Shown one piece after another: positions 15,217-31,081 of a stretch of 32,000 bases of DNA. A program made the translations under genes and the position numbers. Under the pieces are notes generated by a model that saw only the letters and a program-made list of their open reading frames with translations, was not told the origin of the DNA and ran no database searches. Each line of letters opens with the position of its first letter. Within the stretch, counting starts at the first letter, position 1. Source of the stretch: Chitinibacter fontanus (GTDB lineage: Bacteria; Pseudomonadota; Gammaproteobacteria; Burkholderiales; Chitinibacteraceae); the NCBI RefSeq assembly GCF_013423785.1, contig NZ_CP058952.1, positions 1,483,665 through 1,515,664 of the forward strand, read 5' to 3'.

Positions 15217-15428
15217 TCATCCCGCTCACGCAAATCCACAAAGCACAGTGATTGGCGCCCCCGTCCCCTATTCCACCACCTGCGCCAGCGGTACAAAGCT
15301 GCCCGCTTCAAACAGATAATGGCGTGTTTGATCGGCGGTTTGTTCCAGCGCGATGACGTCGCCATCCCAGACAAAGGTCGTGGTCTGCCCGTTGTGGCGT
15401 TTGCCGATGCGGCGGCCGAAGACGTCGT

Positions 15429-15455
15429 CCCCCAAGGGGACTTCCTACGGGGCGT
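15429..15455 (-). repeat. 27-nt insert copy a (plus strand cccccaaggggacttcctacggggcgt)
   Basis: Coding-strand reading is ...FKY|APxEVPLGD|DVFGRR, where x is TAG. Identical to the other three copies. Its two flanks come from two different Y|D sites. Confidence 0.9.
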
Positions 15456-15714
15456 ACTTGAAATGCGTACCGGCGTATTCTTTGAGCAAATTGCCGACGA
15501 TGGCGGGTATATTGCCGGGAAGATTATTACTATTAACCTGCGAGGCAATACTACCATTGGTATTAACGATATTGCTCGCCGGATCGAAGGCAAAAGTCTC
15601 TTTAGCTAGCGGGCTGGCTGGCTGCAGCGATCAGGCGGACGACTGGGTCATAACGGTAGCTGGTCGCGCCGCTGCGGCTATCGTTGATGCCGAGCAGCTG
15701 GCCGACGGCGTCGT

Positions 15715-15741
15715 CCCCCAAGGGGACTTCCTACGGGGCGT
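15715..15741 (-). repeat. 27-nt insert copy b
   Basis: Same 27-mer, at the site homologous to YQY|DAVGQ of the main rhs (main equivalent 21404/21405). Confidence 0.9.
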
Positions 15742-15924
15742 ATTGATAGCTGCGTGTTTGGCTGGCTTTGCCCGCCATGCTGCGTCAGCCGGCCCATTTT
15801 GTCGTATTGCAGCGTGGCGGCGAGCTAATTGCCCAGCGTACGGCTCACTTCGCGGTGCAGATTGTCGCGCTCGAAGCTGGCGATTTCCTGCCCATTCCAC
15901 AGCACGCACCTTACACGAAGTCTT

Positions 15925-15954
15925 CGATTACGCTTTCTAATCGGAATTACGAGG
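15925..15954 (-). repeat. Cassette-junction motif X, copy 1 (cgattacgctttctaatcggaattacgagg)
   Basis: About 75% identical by eye to 19670-19700. Contains the inverted repeat CGATTA-cgctttc-TAATCG. Confidence 0.5.
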
Positions 15955-15964
15955 TCTTAATTGA

Positions 15965-15990
15965 AATTAATCGAGTCTGCCTCATTAATT
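15965..15990 (-). repeat. Cassette-junction hairpin, copy 1 (AATTAAT-cgagtctgcctc-ATTAATT)
   Basis: Lies between the stop of the last immunity gene and rhs fragment B. Homologous to 19020-19046, with a compensatory base-pair change. Confidence 0.55.
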
Positions 15991-16006
15991 CTAACCGTCA
16001 ATTTTC

Positions 16007-16513
16007 TTATAAAATAAAGAAAGTTCCATTTATTTTTTTAAAGTCGACACTGCTTTCACATTTATAACCACAAGGCACATGACCAGCTTTATAAACCTCA
16101 CAAACTTTAGAAAAAAACATGGGTTTTAAGCCAACTCGCTTTATGAAATATTTTTCAACAATGATTAAAATAACATCATCAATAATTTTGCTCTTGATTG
16201 CCTCACGTTTTGTTAGATCAGGAGCAAACTCGACATTTAACGAGAGTTCTTCATCGCAAAATCGTCTAGCCGATTCGACGACCTTATTCCATTCTTGATA
16301 TTGATTTTGAAACTTACTATTTAGAAAAATAGTCAATACTGCTTGAGCCTCCAAACGTATGTCAGCCCATTCATCTGAGAAAAGAGCTTCATCAAACTGC
16401 GGATACGTTAAATTCTCAGTGATAAATTGCAGTTCGTTTTCTCCCACCCCGACACTAGACAGGAAATCAACCGCCTTTAATTCAGAAAATATTGACTCAA
16501 GCACCCTAGACAT
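16007..16513 (-). CDS. Hypothetical protein, putative orphan immunity protein
   Basis: 168-aa AT-rich ORF. Its ATG directly abuts the TGA of the upstream SUKH gene (TGAATG). I recognise no family; the call rests on position in the immunity array. Confidence 0.45.
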   Translation of the reverse strand: MSRVLESIFSELKAVDFLSSVGVGENELQFITENLTYPQFDEALFSDEWADIRLEAQAVLTIFLNSKFQNQYQEWNKVVESARRFCDEELSLNVEFAPDLTKREAIKSKIIDDVILIIVEKYFIKRVGLKPMFFSKVCEVYKAGHVPCGYKCESSVDFKKINGTFFIL

Positions 16514-17008
16514 TCAATTTGACTTAACATTATTAATAATAGACAAGTAAAAATCATCAAATGATTTAGCAACCAAATACAAGCCACCGCACTCATCAAC
16601 CTCAGAAATATCCTCACTATAGTTAACACCCGAATGCAAGTGAGTCCTATCCCAATAGTATATTTTATCCCCACCCTCATCGGCAGTTAACACATAGAAA
16701 TTTCCACCTCCATCTTCGCCAATAACTATTTTTCTATCAACACTAACCAAATCATCCAATACTTCATTATTTATGCAAAGCAAGTCTAGGTTCTCATTTT
16801 CCATAGCACACCCATACAAGCAATAGAAAGAGATAAACCCGTTATCCACTTTTTCCAGCGGAATATCGACATAATCACCATTTGTTATTTTTAAACCATT
16901 ATGCCTCAATAAGAAATCAAAGTAGCATCTCGGAAAATCAATTCCCAATACCGACTCAATATTACTGACAACACCTTCTTCACAACTTCCATTATACAAT
17001 ACCGTCAT
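16514..17008 (-). CDS. SMI1/KNR4 (SUKH-1) family immunity protein, orphan
   Basis: 164-aa ORF with the SUKH hallmark region (VIGEDGGGNFYVL...IYYWD) and the N-terminal FPRCYFDFLLRHNG segment. Confidence 0.8.
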   Translation of the reverse strand: MTVLYNGSCEEGVVSNIESVLGIDFPRCYFDFLLRHNGLKITNGDYVDIPLEKVDNGFISFYCLYGCAMENENLDLLCINNEVLDDLVSVDRKIVIGEDGGGNFYVLTADEGGDKIYYWDRTHLHSGVNYSEDISEVDECGGLYLVAKSFDDFYLSIINNVKSN

Positions 17009-17026
17009 TTTTATAACTTTTTAAGC

Positions 17027-17506
17027 CTACCCCCACCAATCCAATAATGTCTCATCATCTGGATCTTGGAAATTTTTATAGATATTTCCGTAATACCATG
17101 CAACTCCTGAAGCCTCGGTAAATTCATCGAATACTTCACGGATATTATCCAATCCTGAAGAAAATGGTACAGAAAATACAAGCACGCCACAGTCAAATGC
17201 GTCTTTCGTTCCGCCAAGCCTTTCTTCCACATTGGATACTAAATTCTCCAAAACATTAGGCTCAAGAGAATCTGTGTAGATCTGTATTGCAAAGTTCCCA
17301 CCCCGTTTAATAACCTCAGCAGGGGAATCGCTATCATGCAAGGAAATTACATCACTTTTTGCTAAGTTTAAGGTTAGCCCCGGCGATATTAGAAGTTTAA
17401 ATTTCCCATTTCCAAGATCTAATGCGGGCAACTCCTCTCTTACTGGGCCATTCGCGTTGTGGCCAGCTAAAACGGATACTATACATTCTAATTCTTTATC
17501 TACCAT
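17027..17506 (-). CDS. Putative cognate immunity protein for the orphan HNH toxin
   Basis: I place the start at the ATG at 17504-17506 (MVDKELE...), preceded by GGAG. It overlaps the last codons of the toxin ORF (GAPYGR*) by 11 nt. Acidic, AT-rich, family not recognised. Confidence 0.6.
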   Translation of the reverse strand: MVDKELECIVSVLAGHNANGPVREELPALDLGNGKFKLLISPGLTLNLAKSDVISLHDSDSPAEVIKRGGNFAIQIYTDSLEPNVLENLVSNVEERLGGTKDAFDCGVLVFSVPFSSGLDNIREVFDEFTEASGVAWYYGNIYKNFQDPDDETLLDWWG

Positions 17507-18368
17507 AGGGCGCTCCACAACTACCTCGTTCAACACAAGATATTCCTTCTTTCACGTAACCACTACTTCCCGCACTCAAGTTACATGCAGCATCTTCTAG
17601 TTCCACATTTAGGTCCGCCAAGTTCCCACCTTTTGCTGTTGGTACATTTTTATGACCTAAATGCATATCATCAGGATTAGTTGATGTATGACCACAGCGC
17701 CAGCAACGATATACTCCCGTTGTATTCTGGTTTAATAATTTTTCTCGACAATCCTGCTGGCCTTTTCTGTTACCACCTCCAAGCTTACTAGCTTGAATTT
17801 CAGCAGGAGTGGCCCCTTCCCCATCTTTTTTTGCGTAAACCGAAGGTTTCTTTTTTACTAGTCCAAGCGGATCAATCCACTCCACCGGATTCGGCGCATA
17901 GGCATGGGTATTTAATCCGCCCAGCAAACCAATCGGGTCCGACGAAATAAACCGCCCGATTTCCGGGTCGTAGTAGCGGTGGCGGTTGTAGTGTAAACCG
18001 GATTCGGCGTCGAAGTATTGGCCTTGGAAGCGAATCGGGTTGTCGATGCCGGCGCTGTTTGCAGCTTGCGAGTTGACCGCTTTGGCTGCACCCCACGCTT
18101 TGTACTCGGCGCTCCACGCCACTTCGCCGTCTGCGCCGGTAAAGAGTTGCGGCGTGCCGAGGTGGTCGACGTAATAGTAAGCGGTGTTACTCCCACCATC
18201 TTTTTCCACCACCTGCGCCAGCGGCACAAAGCTGCCCGCTTCAAATAGATAATGCCGCGTCTGCTCGGCGGTTTGCTCCAGCGCGATGACGTCGCCATCC
18301 CAGACAAAGGTCGTCGTCTGGCCATTGTGGCGTTTGCCGATGCGGCGGCCGAAGACGTCGTCCCCCAA
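17496..18368 (-). CDS. Orphan Rhs C-terminal core fragment fused to an HNH-endonuclease toxin domain (fragment A, intact 3' part)
   Basis: 290-codon ORF starting at the TTG inside 27-nt insert copy c. The first 170 aa match the end of the Rhs core (HYNRHRYYDPEIGRFISSDPIGLLGG...PVEWIDPLGL, ending at nt 17859). The 120-aa tail contains CWRCGH-x9-MHLGH-x9-GGN-x12-ACN, a classic HNH pattern. Confidence 0.7.
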   Translation of the reverse strand: MGDDVFGRRIGKRHNGQTTTFVWDGDVIALEQTAEQTRHYLFEAGSFVPLAQVVEKDGGSNTAYYYVDHLGTPQLFTGADGEVAWSAEYKAWGAAKAVNSQAANSAGIDNPIRFQGQYFDAESGLHYNRHRYYDPEIGRFISSDPIGLLGGLNTHAYAPNPVEWIDPLGLVKKKPSVYAKKDGEGATPAEIQASKLGGGNRKGQQDCREKLLNQNTTGVYRCWRCGHTSTNPDDMHLGHKNVPTAKGGNLADLNVELEDAACNLSAGSSGYVKEGISCVERGSCGAPYGR

Positions 18369-18388
18369 GGGGACTTCCTACGGGGCGT
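18362..18388 (-). repeat. 27-nt insert copy c
   Basis: The main rhs reads gaagacgtcgt|acgcgtattcgg (EYAY|DVFG, 21029/21030). Here the same flanks enclose the 27-mer, giving EYAY-APxEVPLGD-DVFG. Confidence 0.92.
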
Positions 18389-19016
18389 ACGCGTATTCGG
18401 TTTTGCCATTGGGCGTTTCCACAGCGCGGCAAGGCGGTTAAAGCCATCCCACGCCAGTTTCTGCACCTGCGCGCCTTGCTGTTTTTCAATCAGATTGCCG
18501 CGCGCGTCGTACTTGAAATGCGTACCGGCGTATTCTTTGAGCAAACTGCCGACAATGGTGGGTATATTGCCGGGAAGATTATTACTATTAACCTGCGAGG
18601 CAATACTGCCATTGGTATTAACGATATTGCTCGCCGGATCGAAGGCAAAAGTTTCTTTGGCATGCGGGCTGGCGGCGGCGATCAGGCGGCCAACTGGGTC
18701 GTAACGGTAGCTGGTCGCACCGCTGCGGCTGTCGTTAATGCCGAGCAGCTGGCCGACGGCGTCATCCCCCAAGGGGACTTCCTACGGGGCGTACTGATAG
18801 CTGCGTGTTTGGCTGGTTTTGCCCGCCAGCGTTTGCTGCGTGAGCCGGCCCATTTTGTCGTATTGCTGCGTTGCGGCGAGCTGATTGCCGAGCGTGCGGC
18901 GCACTTCACGGTGCAGATGATCGCGCTCAAAGCTGGCGATTTCCTGCCCATTCCACAACACGCCATGCACATGGCCGCTGCCGTAGGTAAGCCAATCGGT
19001 GCGCTGGCCATCGGGG
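18389..19016 (-). pseudogene. Orphan rhs fragment A, decayed 5' part
   Basis: Aligns by eye to the main rhs at about 21030-21625. It is interrupted by insert copy d (in-frame TAG) and by a 2-nt insertion at about 18420-18423 (ttccACagcgcgg versus main ttccagcgcgg) that shifts the frame. It has no start of its own upstream of copy d. Confidence 0.75.
18766..18792 (-). repeat. 27-nt insert copy d
   Basis: The main rhs reads gacggcgtcat|actgatagc (SYQY|DAVGQ). Here the same flanks enclose the 27-mer. The TTG inside it opens the track ORF 17912..18772. Confidence 0.92.
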
Positions 19017-19714: not shown

Positions 19715-20101
19715 TCAATCAATCTTAAAATCATTCTTTGCCCAGTCTTCGAATCCTGTAGTTATAAATTTAAAATAATTCGGAGACATATCACCCAACC
19801 CAGATGAATATATACCACCATCTTTCACTCGCAATAAAAAACCAGTGCCACCACTATCATCACCAATCAACAAATAGCCAGGAGCATAAATATTCGTTTC
19901 AAAAGTAAGGTTTCTTTCGCAAAGATCTTCTGCCTCGTATAAAACAAGGCCATCATCTCGTGAATATTGACCGTACTTTTTGAGAAAATCTAAATAATGT
20001 ACATCTACCTTAGCAAGATCAACCCAATCCAAAGCCACCCCATTTAGATCAAAATCTACATCACGCCTTTCCGAGTAGAAGGAAAAATTGCCATATTTCA
20101 T
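19715..20101 (-). CDS. SMI1/KNR4 (SUKH) family immunity protein, cognate to the main Rhs toxin
   Basis: 128-aa ORF. Its ATG overlaps the rhs TGA (ATGA). SUKH core LLIGDDSGGTGFLLRVKDGGIY. Confidence 0.75.
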   Translation of the reverse strand: MKYGNFSFYSERRDVDFDLNGVALDWVDLAKVDVHYLDFLKKYGQYSRDDGLVLYEAEDLCERNLTFETNIYAPGYLLIGDDSGGTGFLLRVKDGGIYSSGLGDMSPNYFKFITTGFEDWAKNDFKID

Positions 20102-23100
20102 TTAAACGCCCCCAAACAATCAAAATATTTATAACTATCTTTGATTGATTTTTTGGCAATCTCAGGAGGAACGCCAGCATCAATCATTGATTTGTATCCA
20201 AATTGAAACTCATCACGAATTGAAGTCGATCCCCAGCGACCACCTGGACTTGCATCGAGCTGAGACCGATAAGCACGTTGCGCAGCCGAGATTTTTGCAT
20301 GGGATGCACCGCTGTTCGAAGGTAATAAAACAGCAGGTGCATCCTTTGAGGAATATCCATTTACGTTTTGCTTTGCCCATTCATCCTGTACAGGGTGATG
20401 CGACTGAATGAAGTTGTCACTTCTTGTATTTTTATGACCCGCAGCTCTGTTGCAGGCGGGACTTAAATTCCCATGCGGGTCAACATCGTGCTTCTTATAT
20501 CCACCTGGACGATTAGCTGTTCTTGTTAGTCCTATTGGATCAACCCAACCCACCGGATTCGGCGCATAAGCATGGGTATTTAATCCACCCAACAATCCAA
20601 TCGGGTCAGACGAAATAAACCGTCCCGTTTCTGGGTCGTAGTAGCGGTGGCGGTTGTAGTGTAAACCGGATTCGGCGTCGAAGTATTGGCCTTGGAAGCG
20701 GATCGGGTTGTCGATGCCGACGCTTTGCGCGGCTTGCGAGATGACCGCTTTCGCTTCGCCCCATGCTTTGTATTCCGCCTGCCAAGCGATTTCGCCCTCG
20801 GCGTCGGTCAGCAGTTGCGGCGTACCGAGGTGGTCGACGTGGTAGTAGGCGGTGTTACTGCCTCCATCTTTTTCCACCACCTGAGCCAGCGGTACAAAGC
20901 TGCCCGCTTCGAACAGATAATGGCGTGTGTGATCGGCGGTTTTTTCCAGCGCGATGACATCGCCATCCCAGACAAAGGTCGTGGTCTGGCCGTTGTGGCG
21001 TTTGGCGATACGGCGGCCGAAGACGTCGTACGCGTATTCGGTTTTGCCATTCGGCGTTTCCAGCGCGGCAAGGCGGTTAAACCCATCCCACGCCAGTTTC
21101 TGCACCTGAGCGCCTTGCTGTTTTTCAATCAGATTGCCGCGCGCGTCGTACTTGAAATGCGTACCGGCGTATTCTTTCAGCAAGTTACCGACAATGGTGG
21201 GTATATTGCCGGGAAGATTATTACTATTAACCTGCGAGGCAATACTGCCATTGGTATTAACGATATTGCTCGCCGGATCACAGGCAAAAGTCTCTTTGCT
21301 ATGCGGGCTGGCAGCGGCGATGAGGCGGCCAACGGGGTCATAGCGGTAGCTGGTCACGCCGCTGCGGCTGTCGTTAATGCCGAGTAGCTGGCCGACGGCG
21401 TCATACTGATAGCTGCGCGTTTGGCTGGTTTTGCCCGCCAGCGTTTGCTGCGTAAGCCGGCCCATTTTGTCGTATTGCTGTGTGGCGGCGAGCTGGTTGC
21501 CGAGCGTGCGACTCACCTCGCGGTGCAGATTATCGCGCTCAAAGCTGGCGATTTCCTGCCCATTCCACAACACGCCATGCACATGGCCGCTGCCGTAGGT
21601 GAGCCAATCGGTGCGCTGGCCGTCGGGCCGGATGCTGGCGATGCGATTGCCGAGCGCATCGTATTCGTGCGCCCACGTGTATTGCTGGCGCTGACCAAAC
21701 AGGCGGTAATCGTGCGTTTCCCCGACCAGATTGCCCACCGCGTCAAATTGGAAGCGGCATTCGCTAAATTGATTTTTGGCAGCGTAAATCCGGCCAAAGG
21801 CATCGTATTTAAAGCGCTCGCGGCTGGTGCCGCTGGCGCGCTCAATCAGCCGGCCAGCATTATCGTAGGCCAGCGTGGTGATCTGGCCGGCTTCGTTGAT
21901 TTGCGCCAAGCGGCCGCTGCCGGCATCGTATTGGTACTGCGTTTCGCGCTGGGCAAAATCGCGCTCGCGCAGCAGGCGGCCAACCACGTCGTATTCAAAA
22001 CGATAGCTTTCGCGGTTTTCGTTGGTGAGCGTAATGAGCTGATTGAGTTTGTCGTAGGCATAATTGAGCTGCTGGCCAGCGGCATCGGTGCGACCGCTAA
22101 TGCGGCCCGCTTTGTCGTAGGCGTAGCGCGTGGTGCGATCGAGCGCATCGATGTGCGTTAGCAAACGCCCTTCGGCGTCGTATTCCAGCTTGATTTCGGT
22201 GGTATCGGGCTGAATGACTTTTTCTAATTGGCCCGCATGTCCATACTGGTAGCGGGTAATACCACCTGCTGCGTCTTGCGCGGCTTTGATGCGACCGCGC
22301 TCGTCGTAAGTCCAGCGGCTGGTTTTGCTGGAGCAATCGGTATAGCTCAGCAGCAAGCCGGTATCGGTGTACGCCAGCTTTTTGCTGCCGCCTTTGGCGT
22401 CTTTAATCTCGACCGGCAAGCCTTGCGCGTTGTAGGCGTATTGCGTGCAATGGCCCAGCGGATCGGTTTCTTTAACCAGATTGCCTTTGGCGTCGAATTC
22501 GCGCAGCCACTCCTCGCCGTTGGGGTCGGTGATTTTGATCAGTTGATCTTTGTCGTCATACTGCATCCGCACGATGCTGGCATCGGCGCGGACGTGCTCG
22601 ATGAGATTGTCGCGCTCGTCATAAACAAAAGACTCTTGGCTGCCATCCGAGTGAATATGCTGCAATAGATTTTTGTGATCGTCCCTAAGTAGCCACTCTT
22701 CGCCGCCATCAGGATAAACGGTGCGGTATGGATAGCCAGACTCATCCATATAGTAATACGTTGGATGACCAAGCCCGTTGGTCACAATCGTCAGCCGCAG
22801 ATGCTCAACATATTCGAGCAGCAATTCGCTACTTCCATCATCGGCGTATTCGCGAATGACTCGCGCAGTGGCTTCACGACCATTCCACTCCAAATTCATG
22901 CCACGGCCAGTGCGGTCGGTATAGCGCGTTACTAGGTGATTTTGATAGCGATATTCGCGCTGATGGCCATTTTCATCTGTAGCAGCGATCAGGTCGCCAG
23001 CATCATCGTAGCGATATTGCGCCAAGACCCGCGCAGGCGTATCACCCACTGCTGTTTGCGTTAGTTTCTCGATACGCCCTGCAGCGTCGGTTTGCACCAA

Positions 23101-24687
23101 GACCCACGGGCCATCGCCACTGCGCAAACGCGTCATCCGCCCTGCCGCATCATAATCAAGGACGATCTGATTACCTGCACGATCGCGCAGTAAAGACAGT
23201 AAGAATCGCTCGCCACGCAGCTCATACAACTCAAGCAATTCATGTCCGCGCGTTACTGATAGCAGCTTTTCATCCAAGCGGCTCAGCATCAGCCCTTCGC
23301 TACGATCTTGATGATGCTCGCCGACTTTAAGCAGAGGATAATCCAGCTCACGGCCTTGCGCGTCGATATGAATCAGCTCGGCATCTTGCAACTCAAAGCG
23401 GGTATGAAAAGGTGTCAGCCAGCGGGCACCGAGCATGCCGTCGTCAAACCGGGTGAGACGCGAGTTATAACTACGCGTCCAAACCACCGGCATCACGCCA
23501 GGTAATACAAAATCGGTATGGCTAAATGTTTCATTACCCAAGCCGAGTTGAACGGCTCCGCCAACTTGTCCATTAGTGCCAGGCTTGCCAGTAGGACAGA
23601 CCTTGCACGCATTCGGATTTCGTTTTACGGGTTGTAGTTTTCGCTGTTTTTCAATCGACGCATCGACATGACGGTATTCAACTACACTGCGGCCATTTGT
23701 ATTTGCCGCACCTGTGGCTTTGACCCGACCTTTGCGATGTAGCAACCGTTCACTGATCGTTTTCAGTAACCAAGCAATACTGCCTTTAGTGCCGGCCTCA
23801 GCCAAAGCCATTATTCGTTGATTAATTTGCGGCTTAATGTCTTGGCGTAAATAGCGCGCAATCCCCAGCAATTCGGCTTGCATAGCATCCGTTAAAGCCA
23901 ACTGTAATGCTGAATTCACGACTGCCATTTGTGCGCGAGCATGGAAACTTAAAACAGAGGCAAAAAACCCCTTTTCTTGTTCCGGAGAGCGAAAATTCCG
24001 CCCAGGTTGATACTTTGCCCGACCAGCCGGACGGTATATACCTAGATGACCTGTTGCTATCTGATGCAAAAAGGTTGCAAATTGCTCTAAGAGATCATTC
24101 AGAAAGCCGCACACATCTTGCAATAAAGGCTTGAGCTCGGCAGCGAGATCATCTACCGCTTTTTCAACCTTATCGGCCAGCTTTAAATCTGTTAGCAAAT
24201 GGTTCACGACCACTGTTAAAACTGCTTCGGCAATATCCCCTTTATGATGAGCAATAGCTTGTCGAGCCAAACCAAGAACTGGACGCATGGCAATTCGGGT
24301 GGTAGCTAAGCCTGGGGCTGGAATCACCCCAAGGGCATCAATCCCTATCCCAAACCACTCAACTAAATTGGCTTCGTCTTGTTTTTGCGACAGCTCATAT
24401 AATCCAGTAAGTACATCTGCTGCTGCCAATAGGTTACCGAGCACCGGAACCGCCGACATGACCATTTCCAGGTCACTCAGTGTCAGCTTTCCACCGGTTA
24501 AACTCCTTATCCACTGGTCAAAACCATTAATATTGGCTTGCACATCTTTTGGAAGTTGCGCCCCCTTTAAGGGCAGCAGCGCATACTCGCGCATGATCTT
24601 TTGGGTTTCGTTCGCATTAGCGAGATAGCCAGCACCACTAGACTCTGAAGTCATGGTATCGCGATTGGGGCCGTAGGTTGATCCCAT
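20098..24687 (-). CDS. rhs: Rhs-family T6SS effector: about 372-aa non-PAAR N-terminal domain, YD-repeat shell, and 142-aa C-terminal toxin
   Basis: 1529-aa ORF with many YD repeats (YRYDDAGDL, YAYDKAGR, FEYDVVGRL ...). The core-end motif HYNRHRYYDPETGRFISSDPIGLLGG...PVGWVDPIGL ends at about nt 20527. The tail after it has no homology to fragment A. Confidence 0.95.
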   Translation of the reverse strand: MGSTYGPNRDTMTSESSGAGYLANANETQKIMREYALLPLKGAQLPKDVQANINGFDQWIRSLTGGKLTLSDLEMVMSAVPVLGNLLAAADVLTGLYELSQKQDEANLVEWFGIGIDALGVIPAPGLATTRIAMRPVLGLARQAIAHHKGDIAEAVLTVVVNHLLTDLKLADKVEKAVDDLAAELKPLLQDVCGFLNDLLEQFATFLHQIATGHLGIYRPAGRAKYQPGRNFRSPEQEKGFFASVLSFHARAQMAVVNSALQLALTDAMQAELLGIARYLRQDIKPQINQRIMALAEAGTKGSIAWLLKTISERLLHRKGRVKATGAANTNGRSVVEYRHVDASIEKQRKLQPVKRNPNACKVCPTGKPGTNGQVGGAVQLGLGNETFSHTDFVLPGVMPVVWTRSYNSRLTRFDDGMLGARWLTPFHTRFELQDAELIHIDAQGRELDYPLLKVGEHHQDRSEGLMLSRLDEKLLSVTRGHELLELYELRGERFLLSLLRDRAGNQIVLDYDAAGRMTRLRSGDGPWVLVQTDAAGRIEKLTQTAVGDTPARVLAQYRYDDAGDLIAATDENGHQREYRYQNHLVTRYTDRTGRGMNLEWNGREATARVIREYADDGSSELLLEYVEHLRLTIVTNGLGHPTYYYMDESGYPYRTVYPDGGEEWLLRDDHKNLLQHIHSDGSQESFVYDERDNLIEHVRADASIVRMQYDDKDQLIKITDPNGEEWLREFDAKGNLVKETDPLGHCTQYAYNAQGLPVEIKDAKGGSKKLAYTDTGLLLSYTDCSSKTSRWTYDERGRIKAAQDAAGGITRYQYGHAGQLEKVIQPDTTEIKLEYDAEGRLLTHIDALDRTTRYAYDKAGRISGRTDAAGQQLNYAYDKLNQLITLTNENRESYRFEYDVVGRLLRERDFAQRETQYQYDAGSGRLAQINEAGQITTLAYDNAGRLIERASGTSRERFKYDAFGRIYAAKNQFSECRFQFDAVGNLVGETHDYRLFGQRQQYTWAHEYDALGNRIASIRPDGQRTDWLTYGSGHVHGVLWNGQEIASFERDNLHREVSRTLGNQLAATQQYDKMGRLTQQTLAGKTSQTRSYQYDAVGQLLGINDSRSGVTSYRYDPVGRLIAAASPHSKETFACDPASNIVNTNGSIASQVNSNNLPGNIPTIVGNLLKEYAGTHFKYDARGNLIEKQQGAQVQKLAWDGFNRLAALETPNGKTEYAYDVFGRRIAKRHNGQTTTFVWDGDVIALEKTADHTRHYLFEAGSFVPLAQVVEKDGGSNTAYYHVDHLGTPQLLTDAEGEIAWQAEYKAWGEAKAVISQAAQSVGIDNPIRFQGQYFDAESGLHYNRHRYYDPETGRFISSDPIGLLGGLNTHAYAPNPVGWVDPIGLTRTANRPGGYKKHDVDPHGNLSPACNRAAGHKNTRSDNFIQSHHPVQDEWAKQNVNGYSSKDAPAVLLPSNSGASHAKISAAQRAYRSQLDASPGGRWGSTSIRDEFQFGYKSMIDAGVPPEIAKKSIKDSYKYFDCLGAFK

Positions 24688-24704: not shown

Positions 24705-27700
24705 TTATTTCAGATTAAGTTTGATCGGATTACGTGCAGCATCTAGGGTTGCCCGTGCAGATTTTGCTGCCGGAATGCACTCTGGGCCTACGGGTTGATT
24801 AACTTTAACTCCCGCTATTTTCAAGCCTTCGTTGATTGCAGCCCCATACTCACCCTGCTTGAAAGCATTCAAAGCAGTCTGAACCTGCTTCGCTTTCTCG
24901 ACCAACTTGGCCGCGTCAGCTAAAAGATTACCTTGTGGAATCGACTGGATTACTTCAGCTGGGTTAGGTACATTCGGACTTTCAACGAACGACTGAGCCA
25001 TCGCGGGCAAGAGGCTTGAAAGTTGCGCCTGAGCTTGTTGCTGCACAAGAGTTGGATCAACCGGCACTGCCTCAGCAGGCCAGTGAATAGGGGCAAACTG
25101 GCCAGATTTAGTTTTATGATTGCGCGGATCTTCGGTGAATTTCACCATAACTGCGCCAATTGGCAAACCACCAACCAGGGCCTTACCATCTTTATCTAGC
25201 AGCCCTTCGTGACGTTGTCCGAGTAGGTCGGTTAAGACATAACGACCGGTGGCGACGCCCTCTCGTCCTGCATATAGATGGTGCAATTTAACTTGCCCCA
25301 AGCCAGACGACCTAGGAAAGGCCGGAAAAGGAAGTGTCTGGCTTGCTGGCCCGCTCCAATCATGGCTTGAGCCTTTAAAACTCACCTTGCCCGGCGCGTG
25401 TAGTTCGATCTTGCCGCCTTTAATGCGGATATACGCGCCGCCGGCGGTGAGTAGGATTTCTTGCTTGGCGTTGAATAGATTCTGGCCTTTGATTGCGGTG
25501 AGTTTGACGTTTTTATCCGCCGTAATCTCCACATCATCACTCTGCGCCTGCATCTGCACTTTGCCCTTCGCAGCAATCAGCTTCAGTGCAATGCTGTCTT
25601 TGACCCCGCTCACGAACAGGCTGATGTGTGATCCGACGTTGTGGATCCAGCGCCGCCCCGTGGTTTGGTTGCTGTCTCGTTGCGCAACTTGGTCGATATT
25701 GCTACCGGCGGTTTGGGTCAGGCTTTGCGGCGTGGTGAGCGCGAGGCCATCTTGGCCGTGGAGCATCAACAGCGGCTGCTGGCCAGCTTGGTCTTCTGAT
25801 TTGGTTTTGCCCTCTGAATCCGTATTCGTGCCTGCTTCCCAGCTTTTCGCGGCGTGAACGTGGTGGTGCAGGTGGCCGGTTTTGTGCTTCTCGCCGTTAG
25901 AGTTATCGGGTTTGATCGTTTGCTCGTTCTCACCGGTTTCGATGGTGTCGGCCAGTTGTTTGGTCGCGACTTCGCCGAGGCTTTTCGCGAGTTCGAGCGC
26001 GGATTCAAGCTGGCTGCTGGCAGGGTTGCGGTCGAGCTGTTTACCCGCCGCGCCGCCTTTGGCTTCGGTGGTGAGCAGTAGCCCATGCCCAGCACGAATT
26101 GCACCGTGGGCGTCGGTTCTGAGTTCAAAGCCTTCGCCTCGCGTTTCCCCTTTGCCATTCGTGCGTGGGTGGATCAGGTAGCCGAGGTTGAGTTGCGTTT
26201 TAGCGTGTTCGCTGCTGAGCTTGGTGCGTACTTGGCCGGTGCTGTCGTCGAATAATAATTCGCCGTACTGGCCACCTTTGTATTCTTTACTCTTGATGCC
26301 CGATAACGTTTTATTGGCTGGCAGTGCGCCTGCGCCGCTAAACGTCGGCGTCGGGTGACTGCCGTTGTAGACAACACCTGTGACGATGGGTCTATCGATG
26401 TCGCCTTCAATGAAGTCCACCAGCACTTCTTGCCCGATACGCGGGATGAATTGATGACCCCAGCTCGCACCAGCGCTCGGATAGGCGACTCGAATCCAGC
26501 ACGATGATTTATCGTCGAGATTGGCACCGAAGTCGGCATGTTCGTTGGGCCGTTGCCAGTGAAACTGAACCTTGATTCGGCCCAGTCCATCGGTGTGGAT
26601 TTCTTCACCTGCAGGCCCCACCACAGTGGCGGTTTGTACTCCACGCGATTTGGGTTTCGCCAGTTGCTCGGTGCCGTCCAAATTAAAAGCAGGGGTAATG
26701 GGCTGACCACGGCGTTGGGATTTGAATTCAACGCGATACGGTGCGGGTGTATCTGTCGTACTGTGGGTGGCGGTATTGCTCGCTAACAGGCTCGGTGCAA
26801 TCTGGCGCAGTTGCTGCGTTAAATCATGCGGTAGATTGTTATGAGCAGTGAAGGTGAGTTCGGTAATTGCAAACTCACGTTGCTCCGCACTATCCCACTC
26901 GTGCGCAGGGTGGTCTTCCAAGCGAAACCATTGGCCAGCTTGTAATGAGCGCAATGTACCACTGCCGCTGAATGATTTCTTTTGCCCATCATGCGCTTGC
27001 TGGCGCAGTTGGGCGTAATGACTCAGTTGCTCGGCGTCGCTGGCGTAATACAGGCTTTGCGGGTCGTAATCTTCAAACGACGCTTGTAACTGCTGCCCAC
27101 CGTCGCCTTGATCCACTGCGCTCTCATCACCGCTGTGGCTGGTGTTGCTGGCTTTGTAATCAAAGGTGGCGAGTGCAACGTTGTTACTACCGACTTGGCG
27201 TTGTGAAGTCCATTCGAGCAGTGCATCACTCTCTTCGGTCGCATCGGCGCGATGAAAGCGGACTTGTGAATCGCTGGCTTCGGGAAGCGCAAACGCATCG
27301 TCAAACACCACCAACTGCACTTGCGGCGAATCGGCCGGCTGGTGTTCAAAGCGCCACGCCAAGCCTTCCTCGTGCATCAGTCGGACAAGGAAATCGTAAT
27401 CGGATTCGCGATACTGCAAACAGTAGGAGCGTTGGGAGTGAGCACCACTAAGTTTGAAATCCAGCGTCTGGACTGCGGCAAACACTGAGTTCGCCGCCTG
27501 ATGTTCTCCGATCACCTGTTTGACGATGTCGGGAACGGAGATGTCCTGAAACACGCGAGACGTGCGGCGATGGCGTAAGAGCGCAAACGGCGGCTCGACT
27601 TGCAAACCATACTTGGCAAAACCACCGTCCGAGCCCAACAGCTGGGCTTGCGACACCACACCGCAACGCTCGACGACGCCACCCTCAGAATCGGTAACAC

Positions 27701-27938
27701 CTATCACCACGGGCAAACCGAGCAGCGATTTGAGTTCAATCGCACCATCAGGCGACAGGCATTCCAGCGTGTAGCGATAAGCCTGATTCACCCCCTCGCT
27801 ACCCGTCACCGACTGCGGCAACAGCTGCTCACCCCAAGCGCTACCGTCGCCGAGTTGGAGGGTAATCAGGCGTTGGTCTTGATTAAACGCAGCAGCAAAA
27901 CTACTCAGGATTTGGGACAAGGAAGAAACACTGGTCAT
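24705..27938 (-). CDS. vgrG: T6SS spike protein VgrG (TssI) with a C-terminal extension of about 200 aa
   Basis: 1077-aa ORF with a gp27-like N-terminus and the gp5 OB region (VAYPSAGASWGHQFIPRIGQEVLVDFIEGDIDRPIVTGVVYNG). A DUF2345-like beta-helix ends near ...IELHAPGKVSFKGSSH, followed by an extra tail encoded at about 24708-25304. Confidence 0.95.
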   Translation of the reverse strand: MTSVSSLSQILSSFAAAFNQDQRLITLQLGDGSAWGEQLLPQSVTGSEGVNQAYRYTLECLSPDGAIELKSLLGLPVVIGVTDSEGGVVERCGVVSQAQLLGSDGGFAKYGLQVEPPFALLRHRRTSRVFQDISVPDIVKQVIGEHQAANSVFAAVQTLDFKLSGAHSQRSYCLQYRESDYDFLVRLMHEEGLAWRFEHQPADSPQVQLVVFDDAFALPEASDSQVRFHRADATEESDALLEWTSQRQVGSNNVALATFDYKASNTSHSGDESAVDQGDGGQQLQASFEDYDPQSLYYASDAEQLSHYAQLRQQAHDGQKKSFSGSGTLRSLQAGQWFRLEDHPAHEWDSAEQREFAITELTFTAHNNLPHDLTQQLRQIAPSLLASNTATHSTTDTPAPYRVEFKSQRRGQPITPAFNLDGTEQLAKPKSRGVQTATVVGPAGEEIHTDGLGRIKVQFHWQRPNEHADFGANLDDKSSCWIRVAYPSAGASWGHQFIPRIGQEVLVDFIEGDIDRPIVTGVVYNGSHPTPTFSGAGALPANKTLSGIKSKEYKGGQYGELLFDDSTGQVRTKLSSEHAKTQLNLGYLIHPRTNGKGETRGEGFELRTDAHGAIRAGHGLLLTTEAKGGAAGKQLDRNPASSQLESALELAKSLGEVATKQLADTIETGENEQTIKPDNSNGEKHKTGHLHHHVHAAKSWEAGTNTDSEGKTKSEDQAGQQPLLMLHGQDGLALTTPQSLTQTAGSNIDQVAQRDSNQTTGRRWIHNVGSHISLFVSGVKDSIALKLIAAKGKVQMQAQSDDVEITADKNVKLTAIKGQNLFNAKQEILLTAGGAYIRIKGGKIELHAPGKVSFKGSSHDWSGPASQTLPFPAFPRSSGLGQVKLHHLYAGREGVATGRYVLTDLLGQRHEGLLDKDGKALVGGLPIGAVMVKFTEDPRNHKTKSGQFAPIHWPAEAVPVDPTLVQQQAQAQLSSLLPAMAQSFVESPNVPNPAEVIQSIPQGNLLADAAKLVEKAKQVQTALNAFKQGEYGAAINEGLKIAGVKVNQPVGPECIPAAKSARATLDAARNPIKLNLK

Positions 27939-27984
27939 TTTAAATATTATCCGAGTAGATTTGCTGCAGTCACAAAATTAAGAA

Positions 27985-28419
27985 TTAACCATTAATATCG
28001 ATTTCAACACCATGCTTACTATCTTCGGTGGTATATCGAACACTCATTTTTTTATCCGGTACACCCTGCTCAATTAGGTATTTTTCTACATTTAATGCAC
28101 GAGCCAAGGCGCCATCTTTTGCATTGCCCACTTCTTTCTTATTGCTATAGCCGCGGACAACAAATGCTTTTCCTGCTTTTAGCTGTGGAATTAGTTTTTG
28201 CAATTGTGCTTCATGTTCTGGCGTTAATTTAGCGGATAACTTATCAAAATCGAGGAAATAAGGATCGCGAGCAACGATCGGTGTTGGCACCACTTTCACC
28301 GCTGAACTACTTGGAGTTGGTGTTGGCTTTGGGGCTGCCGACGGATTTGATTGGCATCCACTCAAAACCAGCCCAAAGGCAAGAACACTACTACCGAGAA
28401 GAATTTTTGCGCTATTCAT
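27985..28419 (-). CDS. OmpA-C-like lipoprotein encoded between hcp and vgrG
   Basis: 144-aa ORF with lipobox LVLSGC and a Pro/Thr/Ser linker. The C-terminal segment VVRGYSNKKEVGNAKDGALARALNVEKYLIEQGV loosely matches the OmpA_C peptidoglycan-binding pattern. Confidence 0.55.
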   Translation of the reverse strand: MNSAKILLGSSVLAFGLVLSGCQSNPSAAPKPTPTPSSSAVKVVPTPIVARDPYFLDFDKLSAKLTPEHEAQLQKLIPQLKAGKAFVVRGYSNKKEVGNAKDGALARALNVEKYLIEQGVPDKKMSVRYTTEDSKHGVEIDING

Positions 28420-28433
28420 ATTTGATTTCCTTC

Positions 28434-28473
28434 AATTTGAAAATAATCGATCTGCCATTACGGCAGATCGATT
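28434..28473 (-). terminator. Intrinsic terminator/attenuator immediately downstream of hcp
   Basis: 12-bp perfect stem AATCGATCTGCC-attac-GGCAGATCGATT at 28445-28473. On the minus strand it is followed by ATTTTCAAATT. Confidence 0.6.
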
Positions 28474-28495
28474 TGACAATCAAACCTAAATGGAA

Positions 28496-28993
28496 TTAGG
28501 CGATTGTTTTATTTGCGGTCAAATCCCAGCCTGCACTCACATTACCACCACCAGCACCATCGCTGCGTTTTTGTTGCGTGTAAGTCCATTTGATTTTACC
28601 GTAGCTAAAGCTTACCAACTCACTTGGGAAGCCTTCATCATTGGCTGAGCCATGCGGTACGACTTTAGAAACCAAAACTTGTTCCATTTTGATTTCCATA
28701 TATTTCACTTTGTCGCCACCTGAACGGCACAATTCAATGGTAATTTCTTTAATATGCTTACCCGTGCAGCATGCTTCGTAGATTTTTGGACTTGCTTTAT
28801 CTAAAAAGTGGGTAATTTCATATTGGCCGTGATTTACACGCTCAGCAGTTGCACCACCTGCTGAACTTGCCGTCGCTTGCGCAGGTTGCTCGATTTTATG
28901 AGCGAAAGATTGAATTTCGATCCAATCTTTATGTTTATCATCAGTTGATTCACCTGGAATACCATCGATCTTCAGAAAAGCATCAAATGCCAT
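28496..28993 (-). CDS. hcp: T6SS tube protein Hcp (TssD)
   Basis: MAFDAFLKIDGIPGESTDDKHKDWIEIQSF... is a canonical Hcp N-terminus. I place the start at the ATG at 28991-28993, with GGAG 9 nt upstream, rather than the track TTG at 29008. Confidence 0.95.
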   Translation of the reverse strand: MAFDAFLKIDGIPGESTDDKHKDWIEIQSFAHKIEQPAQATASSAGGATAERVNHGQYEITHFLDKASPKIYEACCTGKHIKEITIELCRSGGDKVKYMEIKMEQVLVSKVVPHGSANDEGFPSELVSFSYGKIKWTYTQQKRSDGAGGGNVSAGWDLTANKTIA

Positions 28994-29043
28994 ATTGCCA
29001 AACTCCAATAAAGTTAAAGAATTTACTTCTTAGTTTCGCTGCA

Positions 29044-30528
29044 TCAACGAGTGGGTTTAGGTAATTCGGCCACTAGACGCAAGGAAATGGTGAGTTCATC
29101 GAGCTGGAAATGCGGGCGTAAAAATGCCGCTGCGCGATAAACGCCTGGCTTGCCAGGAACTTCTACCACATCAACACGTGCTTCGCGTAATGGGTATTTC
29201 GCTTTAGCTTCTTGGCTTGCTGAATCATCGAGTAATACATATTGCGCCAACCAGGTATTGAGAAAATCCTGCACATTTTGGCGTGATGCAAAGCTACCAA
29301 TTTTGTCGCGCATAATTGATTTCATATAATGCGCAATCCGCGATACCGAAAAAATATACGGTAGCTGGGTTGAAAGACGCGCATTGGCATTGGCCGCATC
29401 GGTATTATAAGTTTTGGCTTTTTGCGTTGATTGGCCACTAAAGAACGCGGCGTAATCGGTATTTTTGCAGTGAACGAGTGAAATAAAGCCCAAGTCCGAT
29501 AGCAATTTTTCAGTGCGATCCGTTATAGCCACTTCAGTTGGGCATTTGAGTGCAACTTCACCATCGTCGGTATTAAATGTATGGGCAGGCAAGCCTTCAA
29601 CCAGACCACCACCTTCAACACCGCGAATTGCGGCAAGCCAACCAAAATCGGCAAAAGCGGCAGTCATACGCGCACCATAGGCATAGGCAGCATTGGTCCA
29701 CAGGTATTTGCTGTGATCGGTACCATCGACATTTTCTTCAAAGTCGAAGTCTTCCACTGGGCTCGTCTCACGACCATACGGCAAGCGGCCTAATACATGC
29801 GGCAACACCATGCCAACGTAGCGAGAATCTTCAGACTCACGGAATGATTTCCACTTAGCGTATTCAACGGTATCGAAGATTTTAGCTAAGTCGCGTGGTT
29901 TACCAATATCGGTAAAGCTCTCCAGACCGAATAAGCCTGCACCCGCCGAGGTAATCAATGGCGCATGCGAAGCCGCAGCTACGTGTGATAATTCTTCAAG
30001 CAGGTAAAAATCTTCTGGATGACGGCCAAATTCAAAGTCGCCGATCAAACCAGCGTAGGGTGCGCCACCGAAGGTACCGTACTCTTCTTCATAGATTTTC
30101 TTAAACAGAGCACTTTGATCAAATTCAGCCGATGCTTTGAAATCTTTCACTAAATCTTTTTTCGAAACGTTGAGCACTTTGATTTTTAACATCGTGCTAG
30201 TTTCAGATTCGGCGGTGAGATATTTCAGACCACGCCATGAAGCTTCAAGCTTTTGAAAATCATTGTGATGCATGATTTCGTTCAATTGCTTTGAAATCAG
30301 CGCATCAATTTCTGCAATTCGCGCGTCCATACTGGCGGTAAGATCACGCGAAACAGTGACAGTGCCTGCCAACACCTGATCAGCCAATTCGCTGATGAGA
30401 TCACGCGTATGGTTTTTCTCAGAATCATTGGTCGCAATTTTGCTGTTTTCAATAATTGAATCGAGCAGGCTGCTTGTTTGGGCTGGCGCGGCGACTGGGG
30501 CGTCAAGAACTTGTTGATCGGTGCTCAT
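29044..30528 (-). CDS. tssC: T6SS contractile sheath large subunit TssC (VipB)
   Basis: 494-aa ORF of typical length and sequence (LKYLTAESE, GDFEFGRHPEDFYLLEELSHVAAASHAPLITSA, LPHVLGRLPYG). Confidence 0.97.
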   Translation of the reverse strand: MSTDQQVLDAPVAAPAQTSSLLDSIIENSKIATNDSEKNHTRDLISELADQVLAGTVTVSRDLTASMDARIAEIDALISKQLNEIMHHNDFQKLEASWRGLKYLTAESETSTMLKIKVLNVSKKDLVKDFKASAEFDQSALFKKIYEEEYGTFGGAPYAGLIGDFEFGRHPEDFYLLEELSHVAAASHAPLITSAGAGLFGLESFTDIGKPRDLAKIFDTVEYAKWKSFRESEDSRYVGMVLPHVLGRLPYGRETSPVEDFDFEENVDGTDHSKYLWTNAAYAYGARMTAAFADFGWLAAIRGVEGGGLVEGLPAHTFNTDDGEVALKCPTEVAITDRTEKLLSDLGFISLVHCKNTDYAAFFSGQSTQKAKTYNTDAANANARLSTQLPYIFSVSRIAHYMKSIMRDKIGSFASRQNVQDFLNTWLAQYVLLDDSASQEAKAKYPLREARVDVVEVPGKPGVYRAAAFLRPHFQLDELTISLRLVAELPKPTR

Positions 30529-30531
30529 TGA

Positions 30532-31041: not shown

Positions 31042-31081
31042 TTTGATTCCCAAATAAATAAAATTTTAGTTAAATCAAACC

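Follow-up and report, generated by a model that had tools for sequence, protein, structure and literature searches.

The window (the whole 32,000-nt stretch of DNA analysed, from Chitinibacter fontanus) carries a main rhs gene after vgrG, followed by 5'-truncated cores, alternative toxin tips and immunity genes. This arrangement resembles the orphan rhs toxin/immunity modules that lie downstream of the main rhs in Salmonella, E. coli, Serratia and Dickeya, and all parts of such a module (5'-truncated core, alternative C-terminal toxin and immunity gene, downstream of a full rhs) are present. The features are listed below, with a vertical bar marking the point of insertion.

24705..31987, minus strand: T6SS context, with VgrG, OmpA-like, Hcp, TssC/VipB, TssB/VipA and TagF
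20098..24687, minus strand: main rhs (1529 aa, Tox-SHH tip), with three empty target sites
21025-21030 (TACGAC), 21145-21150 (TACGAC) and 21400-21405 (TATGAC), minus strand: the empty sites in main rhs
17496..19015, minus strand: orphan rhs module 1, a core fragment with two elements and a +2 frameshift near 18420-18421
18765..18791, minus strand: element copy d, in orphan 1 at TA|T of SYQY|D; its flanks rejoin to TATGAC, identical to main rhs
18361..18387, minus strand: element copy c, in orphan 1 at TA|C of EYAY|D; GTAG variant, CGCCCCGTAGGAAGTCCCCTTGGGGGA
16007..17536, minus strand: immunity-type genes between both orphans (DUF4265, 17027-17536; SUKH/SMI1, 16514-17008; a third gene, 16007-16513)
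15271..15907, minus strand: orphan rhs fragment 2, reduced to core debris that contains several indels
15714..15740, minus strand: element copy b, at SYQY|D of orphan 2; copy d is its paralogue
15428..15454, minus strand: element copy a, in orphan 2 at a ~120-nt deletion junction; left flank from site 2 (FKY), right flank from site 1

The toxin of the main rhs is Tox-SHH. After its +2 frameshift, orphan 1 keeps an intact frame through the end of the RHS core and the C-terminal toxin (ORF 17496-18368); this toxin, which an earlier note on this DNA called HNH, contains the CxxC/HLGH motifs but has no significant Pfam match. Orphan fragment 2 is without a toxin domain and adjoins a Fe-ADH gene. 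Aligned with main rhs 20527-21627, orphan 1 (17859-19015) is 87% identical and shows two clean 27-nt gaps, at ~21029 and ~21404. Apart from copy a, which sits on a deletion junction, the inserts are clean relative to intact rhs, as had been described for every site.

An exact search of the window returned four copies of the 27-mer, written on the plus strand and starting at 15429, 15715, 18362 and 18766, whereas 100 shuffles of the window give an expectation of zero; no fifth copy appeared in the window with up to 3 or up to 6 mismatches tolerated. The number, identity and common orientation of the copies are therefore as the earlier note had them. Its register is not: the insertion has a 3-nt ambiguity (ACG), and when this is fixed through ~54 independent copies and the empty site of an Iodobacter VgrG, the true unit, CGCCCC...GGGGGA, starts one base further left. 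All four copies lie at TA|Y of Tyr-Asp codons, and translation of the coding (minus) strand gives AYAP*EVPLGDDVFGRR, confirming the nine-codon insert A-P-TAG-E-V-P-L-G-D at Tyr codons of YD motifs. The proposed GTCCCC/GGGGAC hairpin folds as described, and the 290-codon ORF (17496-18368) does open at the TTG of copy c. It opens there because TAG precedes; such a "first start after stop" ORF is a mechanical outcome of the TAG and no proof of translation. To our knowledge, no rhs orphans with a foreign micro-repeat at YD codons have been reported.

The claim that the insert occurs only in orphan rhs fragments is correct within the window and fails beyond it, as copies lie in many unrelated loci. 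Scanning reference genomes with an exact 20-mer located the element at 34 loci with unrelated flanks, and a metagenome scan placed it on at least 120 contigs. The hosts are soil and water Proteobacteria (beta-, gamma- and deltaproteobacteria), mostly Burkholderiales and Rhodocyclales, with further copies in Xanthomonadales, Desulfocapsa and a Myxococcota MAG. Many loci are intergenic, frequently within the loops of other palindromes, while about a third of the unique contexts (~20 of 54) are coding-like ORFs. Copy number per replicon is low (a Burkholderia replicon of 3.2 Mb has no more than 3 places), which is odd for a selfish repeat. Six of 72,556 plasmid records contain the element, and 5,426 E. 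coli genomes contain no copy.

These copies define a repeat unit, CGCCCCG(A/T)AGGAAGTCCCCTTGGGGGA, with sharp ends and unrelated flanks. The family consensus, CGCCCCGAAGGAAGTCCCCTTGGGGGA, consists of a conserved 14-nt single-stranded part followed by a hairpin with a 3-nt YTG loop and a 5-bp stem (6 bp counting a weak outer pair). The seven positions left unconstrained by the search are conserved in 24-27 of 27 loci, with random flanks, and the 54 unique contexts again show a conserved unit in random surroundings. The stem is supported by covariation (16 double-change cells against 2.5 expected; none of 500 shuffles reaches the observed value), and covariation support for an alternative, TIR-like hairpin spanning the whole element is absent. 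Head-to-tail arrays with a 27-nt period and 100% identity also occur. The second position of the GAAG/GTAG tetranucleotide can be any of the four bases, but the GAAG form accounts for 127 of the 129 metagenome copies among the matches listed (at least 120 loci), and this common variant is free of stops in all six frames. The window copies are a rare A-to-T variant, GTAG, in which an in-frame TAG is imposed by insertion at TA|Y.

How does the element enter its targets? It moves as an exact 27-nt block without target duplication. Of 54 contexts, 40 have a purine before and a pyrimidine after the insertion point (R|Y), A|C being commonest, and the base preceding the element, one base only, covaries with its last base (p=0.0046). 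Exact nine-codon inserts are found in GatB, MiaB, TnpB, an integrase, IS3, IS66, an Iodobacter VgrG, an ABC-F protein and others, in both orientations within functional ORFs. The Iodobacter VgrG is filled (RPEGSPLGG), whereas its own paralogue and two orthologues are empty; similarly, IS66 is filled in P. phymatum and empty in P. megapolitana and Caballeronia. In TnpB a conserved motif is interrupted, AIN[PPRGLPTGR]ILERG, and in GatB and MiaB the element forms an extra loop compared with solved homologues. Since its 27 nt make up nine whole codons and the usual variant is stop-free, the element survives as a nine-residue loop in working proteins, and it also persists between genes.

Taken together, we consider it probable, at roughly three chances in four, that the 27-mer belongs, as the rare GTAG variant, to a widespread family of non-autonomous, ultra-small repeats interspersed in genomes, and that it landed two or three times in silent, decaying rhs orphans and was then copied along. 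A device specific to rhs is not compatible with a distribution over many taxa that takes in hairpins between genes, IS elements and housekeeping genes. The earlier note had itself reasoned that a generic repeat, mostly intergenic elsewhere, would count against its reading; since the copies occupy unrelated sites and taxa, this is largely what we observe. Its idea of a site-specific micro-element survives in part, in that the unit is mobile and has a target preference (GTA|YGACG sites in rhs), but it is specific neither for rhs nor for YD codons, the general target being R|Y in many taxa. On this reading the stop, SD-like AGGAAG motif and TTG are incidental to the element sequence. The frame Y-A-P-(K/*)-E-V-P-L-G-D follows from insertion at TA|Y within a Tyr codon, and the TAG is tolerated in the orphans because their upstream parts are already untranslated debris.

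The same pattern had suggested an insulator or restart cassette, in which TAG halts upstream reading and AGGAAG-N7-TTG restarts translation of the orphan toxin, so that the insert is retained in orphans. TAG, an SD-like AGGA and TTG do stand at workable spacing, the TTG of copy c heads the intact 290-codon frame, the four copies are identical although their flanks diverge by 7%, and the stop-bearing variant is the form found in the rhs lineage of both genera, that of the window and Chitinolyticbacter albus. We nevertheless regard this function as very unlikely. The dominant variant carries no stop, and copies sit in both orientations within functional genes as well as in intergenic hairpins. 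Copies a, b and d open no toxin ORF, the +2 shift breaks the frame of d, and the copies of Chitinolyticbacter albus are decaying. Iodobacter orphans have similar ORFs of 240-340 codons without the element, and no promoter signal above chance was detected near it. Finally, established Rhs biology speaks against a 290-aa fragment devoid of the Rhs shell and the VgrG-binding N-terminus.

An even smaller probability, close to negligible, attaches to translational bypass or an assembly artefact, for which only a compact hairpin beside a stop codon speaks. Yeast mitochondria have comparable inserts, namely mobile GC clusters and byp elements: these too are short hairpins rich in GC that can lie within coding sequence. 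However, they are organellar and of other sequences, and byp elements are bypassed by the ribosome, whereas the present element needs no bypass. Unlike gene 60 and byp, it offers neither matched take-off and landing codons (CCG and CCC here) nor a continuous functional frame on both sides: upstream of copy c come the +2 frameshift and another stop-bearing copy. For the stop-free common variant bypass would be superfluous. Against an artefact speak the decayed copies that another genus has at the same site, as well as the copies found in finished replicons and in many independent assemblies.

Within rhs, copies a/c and b/d are paralogous pairs that arose by orphan duplication, and the four window copies therefore represent two or three insertion events rather than four. 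The occupied rhs sites are all GTA|YGACG (3 of 3), while the remaining three YD sites of this span are without an insert. In orphans of Chitinolyticbacter albus, decayed GTAG copies occupy the same site as copy c. A founder copy may have inserted at TA|C of EYAY|D in a Chitinibacteraceae rhs, and later copies may have reached two further GTA|YGACG sites; the copies would then have doubled when the orphan module was duplicated, and recombination between two of them could have removed 120 nt from orphan 2. A copy on a ~120-nt deletion junction, as seen for copy a, is the outcome expected from recombination between two copies. The identity of the four copies despite 7% difference in their flanks (p about 0.02 under neutrality) indicates that constraint, gene conversion or recent insertion also acts.

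Homology-driven copying between YD repeats, by ectopic gene conversion or template switching at ACG microhomology rather than by element-specific transposition, appears unlikely as the source of these copies. The three sites do have GTAYGACG and similar downstream codons in common, three of the four copies have ACG at both ends, and every rhs copy is the rare GTAG variant, suggesting a local origin; moreover, partial-unit tandem expansions in Trinickia demonstrate that slippage acts on the element sequence. Yet no flanking bases were co-converted, and the flanks rejoin exactly as in main rhs, including the TAT versus TAC difference. The flank homology in common is only about 8-14 nt, and sites elsewhere are alike in nothing beyond R|Y.

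It is highly improbable that the element exists as a recombination signal dedicated to swapping rhs toxin modules, as had also been proposed. In favor of such a role, the deletion junction at copy a joins two element sites, the conversion tract with main rhs stops at copy c (98% identical on one side of it and about 90% identical on the other), and in Chitinolyticbacter albus fragment 2 the rhs homology begins exactly at the element. All three are passive effects of an identical 27-nt repeat or of heterology. Most copies elsewhere are unconnected with rhs, and the rhs loci of Iodobacter fluviatilis and C. meiyuanensis are without the element.

Which known repeats does the family resemble? Rickettsia palindromic elements (RPEs) are selfish repeats found as in-frame insertions in housekeeping genes that are unrelated to each other, where the host tolerates the additional peptide segment (PMC10969869). 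The element likewise lies in frame within unrelated ORFs (GatB, MiaB, TnpB, VgrG, integrase, ABC-F), but RPEs measure about 100-150 bp and are confined to Rickettsia, whereas the element has 27 nt and spans several orders. The small dispersed repeats (SDRs) of Nostocaceae, in the parts of their descriptions considered here, are about 20-27 nt long and regarded as mobile, although no enzyme has been assigned to them; they form tandem copies of variable number, and SDR5 inserts into the short palindrome HIP1 (PMC2884548, PMC5861425, PMC3116915). As far as these descriptions go, the element agrees with SDRs in tiny size, an invariant core with unrelated flanks, tandem copy variation and entry into palindromes, but SDRs are reported there from Nostocaceae only and the present family is proteobacterial. 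A MITE assignment does not fit, as target duplication is lacking and the TIR-like whole-element hairpin does not covary.

REP sequences are defined by GTAG or GTGG 0-2 nt 5' of the hairpin foot, a basal stem of 7-20 fully paired bases with a loop of 2-5, and a size of 21-65 nt (PMC6006769). Like REP/REPIN sequences (RAYT, TnpA_REP) and IS200/IS605 ends, the element has a short hairpin after a conserved single-stranded segment, which in the window variant reads GTAG; the lack of target duplication, non-autonomy, clustering and a length within the REP range are further likenesses. In contrast to REPs, however, its major variant has GAAG rather than GT[AG]G, the tetranucleotide lies 3-4 nt from the covarying stem, and the stem is shorter. 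REPs are extragenic, high-copy and species-specific, whereas the element is partly inside ORFs, has few copies per replicon and is near-identical across orders. Single-strand transposition of the IS200/IS605 type would leave no target duplication and would insert 3' of a short target recognized in the manner of the element's own 3' end. The element makes no target duplication, its target is R|Y and the preceding base covaries with its last base, but a single base is involved, and one hairpin does not match the two-ended design. Such transposition also predicts a replication-related strand bias, with the active strand on the lagging-strand template.

Tentatively, and with less than even odds, movement might occur in trans on single-stranded DNA by an HUH enzyme (IS200/IS605 or RAYT-like), with spread between genomes on IS elements, MITEs and plasmids. 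Clustering of neighboring genes returned generic families only, with no mobilizing gene and no recurrent RAYT (tnpA_REP) neighbor adjoining the element. With a probability short of an even chance, the family could represent a "nano-transposon" that is active today and has not been described before, and the GTAG form in rhs could also be retained for silencing orphan cassettes or limiting recombination with main rhs. If so, Proteobacteria would have no smaller known mobile DNA unit than this one, moving by a mechanism without an assigned enzyme, crossing order boundaries by riding IS elements and plasmids, and writing a fixed nine-residue loop into essential proteins. Relative to GC skew the orientation bias of the element is weak: at 22 of 33 loci (22:11, p=0.08) the G-rich strand is the one that carries its forward sequence, and the window has the same orientation.

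The 27-mer CCCCCAAGGGGACTTCCTACGGGGCGT has exactly four matches in the window, all on the plus strand, where chance predicts none, and allowing up to three or up to six mismatches reveals no further copies there. The copies lie in two truncated rhs modules, orphan 1 and orphan 2, of a minus-strand type VI secretion locus, where TagF, TssB, TssC, Hcp, an OmpA-like gene and VgrG are followed by a 1529-residue Rhs with a Tox-SHH tip (main rhs), immunity-type genes and the two orphans.

15429, plus strand: copy a of the 27-mer, in orphan 2
15715, plus strand: copy b, in orphan 2
17496-17960: toxin domain of orphan 1
17859-19015: stretch of orphan 1 that aligns to main rhs
18362, plus strand: copy c, in orphan 1
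18766, plus strand: copy d, in orphan 1
20098-24687, minus strand: main rhs

Orphan 1 aligns to positions 20527-21627 of main rhs with 87% identity and two clean 27-nt gaps. Orphan 2 aligns in two pieces (15271-15428 to 20872-21029, and 15453-15907 to 21147-21575), which places copy a on the junction of a deletion of about 120 nt. On the coding strand each insert reads ...Y-A-P-TAG-E-V-P-L-G-D-D..., and the earlier note had described the four inserts correctly, apart from corrections made when its observations were checked. Between copies d and c, orphan 1 also has two nucleotides that main rhs lacks (18420-18421), so that the stretch upstream of copy c is out of frame with or without the inserts. 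From its CxxC, HLGH and N motifs, the toxin domain of orphan 1 may have an HNH-like fold; a Pfam search of this toxin gave no significant match (best Ntox47, E=0.089), and the gene downstream is a DUF4265 gene.

The earlier note placed the inserts only in orphan rhs fragments, which is true of the window but does not survive a wider search. An exact scan for the inner 20-mer GTAGGAAGTCCCCTTGGGGG, using one genome per species, identified 34 loci with unrelated flanks in Trinickia, Paraburkholderia, Burkholderia, Pandoraea, Bordetella, Sulfuritalea and other Rhodocyclales, Chitinolyticbacter, Luteimonas, Pseudoxanthomonas, a Desulfocapsa MAG and a Myxococcota MAG. At the seven positions left free in this search, 24-27 of 27 independent loci agree, and the agreement breaks off sharply at both ends, which defines the unit as exactly CGCCCCGTAGGAAGTCCCCTTGGGGGA. 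Scanning metagenomes with either A or T accepted at the eighth position added at least 120 loci; among the matches listed, 127 of 129 copies are of the GAAG type and two of the GTAG type, so the form found in the window is a rare one-base variant. The 66 distinct variants recovered from the fetched loci (none in shuffled sequence; family model CGCCCCGNAGGAAGT-N4-YTG-N4-R) have three regions: a stem, a loop and, 5' of them, a nearly invariant segment, CGCCCCGNAGGAAG, in which all four bases occur at position eight. Neither the orphan region nor the element is matched in 5,426 E. coli genomes, and the element is absent from the viral contigs of IMG/VR and from the 50,697 phage records of INPHARED; origins in E. 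coli or in phages were rejected on these grounds. Among plasmids it occurs in just 6 of 72,556 records, all from Burkholderia or Paraburkholderia. No Rfam family overlaps the element in the window or in eight other element-bearing loci, which led us to reject a known RNA family as its identity, and in a literature search by literal sequence no relevant paper prints the 27-mer.

Does the element move as a unit? At the three rhs sites, EYAY|D (site 1), FKY|D (site 2) and SYQY|D (site 3), the flanks rejoin exactly in main rhs, including the TAT at site 3. Iodobacter sp. CM08 (JAWQUO010000012.1; positions 8891-8917 of the locus) has a GAAG-type element in a VgrG paralogue, where it encodes RPEGSPLGG; exactly these nine codons are missing from the locus's second VgrG, from the Iodobacter fluviatilis VgrG and from the VgrG of the window, and the junctions read GGCCAA|element|CAAAAA. 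This gene lies directly upstream of that genome's rhs and is a second T6SS-locus match within the same bacterial family. An IS66 copy on the symbiosis plasmids of P. phymatum and P. phenoliruptrix has the element after GTAA|, and related copies in P. megapolitana and Caballeronia are without it. In a Pandoraea TnpB (...HADVVGAIN[PPRGLPTGR]ILERG...; locus L028) the element splits a conserved C-terminal motif, which marks it as an insertion and rejects the alternative that it is the end hairpin of an IS605-type element. In a metagenomic GatB and in MiaB of Burkholderia lata, loop residues that solved homologues lack lie exactly at the element; other hosts include a tyrosine recombinase, an ABC-F ATPase, a DedA-like protein and an indolepyruvate oxidoreductase. 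Coding-like ORFs hold the element in approximately 20 of 54 unique contexts, in both orientations, and the peptide APKEVPLGD of the GAAG variant is found in several unrelated proteins. These comparisons of filled and empty sites are evidence that the element moves as a 27-nt block.

The insertions leave no target duplication: across the 54 contexts CG never varies on the left, whereas the triplet on the right does, and a 3-nt ACG duplication was rejected as the flanking triplets match in just 7 of 54 pairs. A purine precedes and a pyrimidine follows the element in 40 of the 54 contexts, most commonly as A|C, with covariation between the preceding base and the final base of the element (Fisher p=0.0046). 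Six Tyr-Asp junctions lie in the part of rhs that the orphans span: the three reading GTAYGACG are occupied now or were formerly, and the three that read otherwise are empty; folding of rhs single strands fails to separate occupied from empty YD sites, and insertion into hairpin loops of these strands was rejected. The Tyr|Asp rule proposed from the window follows from TAY-GAY codons providing TA|Y targets, and the first C of the element completes the Tyr codon at TA|Y, which fixes the frame as A-P-(K or stop)-E-V-P-L-G-D. The suggestion of a site-specific micro-element holds in kind, as a 27-nt mobile block with a purine|pyrimidine target, and fails in its restriction to rhs, given the generic distribution. 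In two diverged transposase genes on metagenome contigs the element interrupts one and the same codon junction, FY|N, again TA|Y (L140 at about 7027-7053 and L141 at about 120-146, in the element's own orientation); from a DYIE(G/V)FYN..RRHS motif seen by eye, they look like IS3-family OrfB.

The element contains a 5-bp stem, TCCCC/GGGGA, with the loop YTG. Compensatory changes occur at three stem positions (GTGGCC/GGCCAC, GTCACC/GGTGGC, GTACCC/GGGTAC, GTGCCC/GGGCAT, CCCCC/GGGGG), with 16 double-change cells against 2.5 expected; none of 500 shuffles reaches the observed value, and in a second control the signal collapses when the partners are slid. A whole-element hairpin (CCCCGAAGG/CCTTGGGGG) shows no covariation and was rejected. 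Head-to-tail arrays with a 27-nt period and 100% identity are found, as are partial-unit expansions in Trinickia, (CGCCCCGTAGGAAGTCCCC)n and (TTGGGGGA)n. The flanks form perfect inverted repeats of at least 6 nt in 8 of 54 contexts (1.4 expected), so the element often sits in the loop of another palindrome.

The single-strand HUH chemistry of IS200/IS605 and RAYT systems (PMC6006769) is a possible route of movement, which a number of the element's features recall: a conserved single-stranded segment lies 5' of a small covarying hairpin, the ends are exact and duplication is absent, insertion is on the 3' side of a purine, whose identity covaries with that of the last base of the element, arrays run head to tail, palindrome loops are preferred, and the G-rich strand is weakly favoured (22:11, p=0.08), as it is in the window. 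Template switching at short homologies is another possible route. Clustering of neighbouring genes linked no mobilising enzyme to the element, yielding only response regulators, ABC ATPases, SDR, LysR and Bug proteins. The element occurs within IS3, IS66 and IS605-type elements, an integrase gene, a MITE-like repeat of about 195 nt from a Desulfocapsa MAG, and conjugative plasmids, with which it could travel between genomes. REP/REPIN elements are among the nearest known kinds, although the element departs from the REP definition in tetranucleotide, stem length, extragenic location and copy number. The other two are the small dispersed repeats of Nostocaceae as described (20-27 nt; Elhai, 2008), which it resembles in size, and the Rickettsia palindromic elements, which it resembles in its in-frame habit; unlike both, as far as their descriptions go, it is near-identical across orders.

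A purpose-built stop/restart cassette that insulates orphan toxins from upstream rhs debris is an attractive idea, yet it is unsupported. Read directly from the sequence, GAAG, the commonest variant, has no stop codon in any of six frames and GTAG has one in a single frame only. The element sits in working genes in either orientation, three of the window's four copies open no toxin frame, the region upstream of copy c already has a frameshift and a further stop, the copies in Chitinolyticbacter albus are decaying, and Iodobacter orphans without the element have similar ORF lengths. The 290-codon ORF reported by the ORF finder starts at the TTG of copy c merely because this is the first start codon past the TAG, and no promoter-like signal above chance was found near the element. 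As for a recombination signal, also suggested in the earlier note, the effects seen are passive only, and translational bypass of the insert is unnecessary and unsupported. We consider an rhs-specific story for the element improbable.

The closest Rhs to that of the window is from C. albus (66% identity), where three decayed orphan fragments lie beside rhs. In two of them the EYAY|D site is likewise occupied, by a GTAG-type element in decay, and in the third (L008, 1262-1350) rhs homology begins exactly at a decayed element, so that a rearrangement breakpoint coincides with the element. No copy of the element was found in the rhs loci of I. fluviatilis, C. meiyuanensis and a related metagenome contig. 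We infer that the element first arrived at site 1 as a founder GTAG copy, either in an ancestor or in a module acquired by transfer, and spread locally to sites 3 and 2; the orphan module would then have been duplicated, and recombination between two element copies would have produced the deletion in orphan 2. The flanks of the two orphans differ by 7.0%, which makes four identical 27-mers mildly unexpected under neutrality (p about 0.02); recent insertion, gene conversion or constraint may be involved. Orphan 1 is about 90% identical to main rhs on the toxin side of copy c and 98% on the other (18389-18538 against 21030-21177). This appears to be a recent conversion tract with main rhs, bounded by the 27-nt heterology at copy c, and orphan 1 may have lost a copy at site 2 through such conversion.

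For rhs biology, the idea of a stop/restart cassette is removed and the inserts become instead a usable marker, which dates and traces orphan modules and marks the limit of conversion with main rhs. The real interest is in the element itself rather than in an rhs-specific story: it is unusual mobile DNA, 27 nt long, letter-perfect across orders, with a covarying structure, purine|pyrimidine sites and duplication-free insertion, and tolerated even within GatB, MiaB, VgrG and transposases. By placing identical indels of nine residues in proteins that are otherwise unrelated, it can mislead annotation as well as inferences of horizontal transfer drawn from homology, and it offers a tractable handle on the movement of REP-like and SDR-like micro-repeats.

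Several composite arrangements were also observed. In intergenic arrays of Trinickia and a metagenome contig (L004 2960-3080, L010 7395-7500, L014 4180-4300 and L147) the element halves are separately expanded, as (CGCCCCGWAGGAAGTCCCC)n followed by (TTGGGGGA)n, and their G-runs could form G-quadruplexes. Two Paraburkholderia species carry the element plus ACCGTAACGGT between GCCRCGCA/TGCGYGGC in opposite orientations (L006 4123-4175 and L020 5065-5102), which is better explained by a hairpin-loop flip between the inverted-repeat stems than by independent insertions. The Desulfocapsa MITE-like repeat has long terminal inverted repeats and the 27-mer near its centre, on at least three contigs (L007 2860-3056, L013, L032); the 27-mer is a hitch-hiker in this larger repeat. 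At L044 the element lies in the loop of a CTACTTTTCTTTG/CAAAGAAAAGTAG palindrome, adjoined by weak, sub-threshold Rfam matches (462-564 and 1094-1189) to the Burkholderia sRNA candidate Bp1_Cand684, a family that may itself be a repeat. Another element-bearing contig has a manganese (yybP-ykoY) riboswitch (L046 698-874, 73 bits), unrelated to the element. Finally, a longer subfamily, GGTCGACCG + element + RYAGCA (L027, L045, L117, L120, L131, L132 and others), reads (A)PQGDFLRGAVD on the reverse strand and occurs in unrelated proteins, among them a FIST protein and, by eye from flanking peptides, putative HypF-like, CysRS-like, SelO-like and spermidine-synthase-like proteins.
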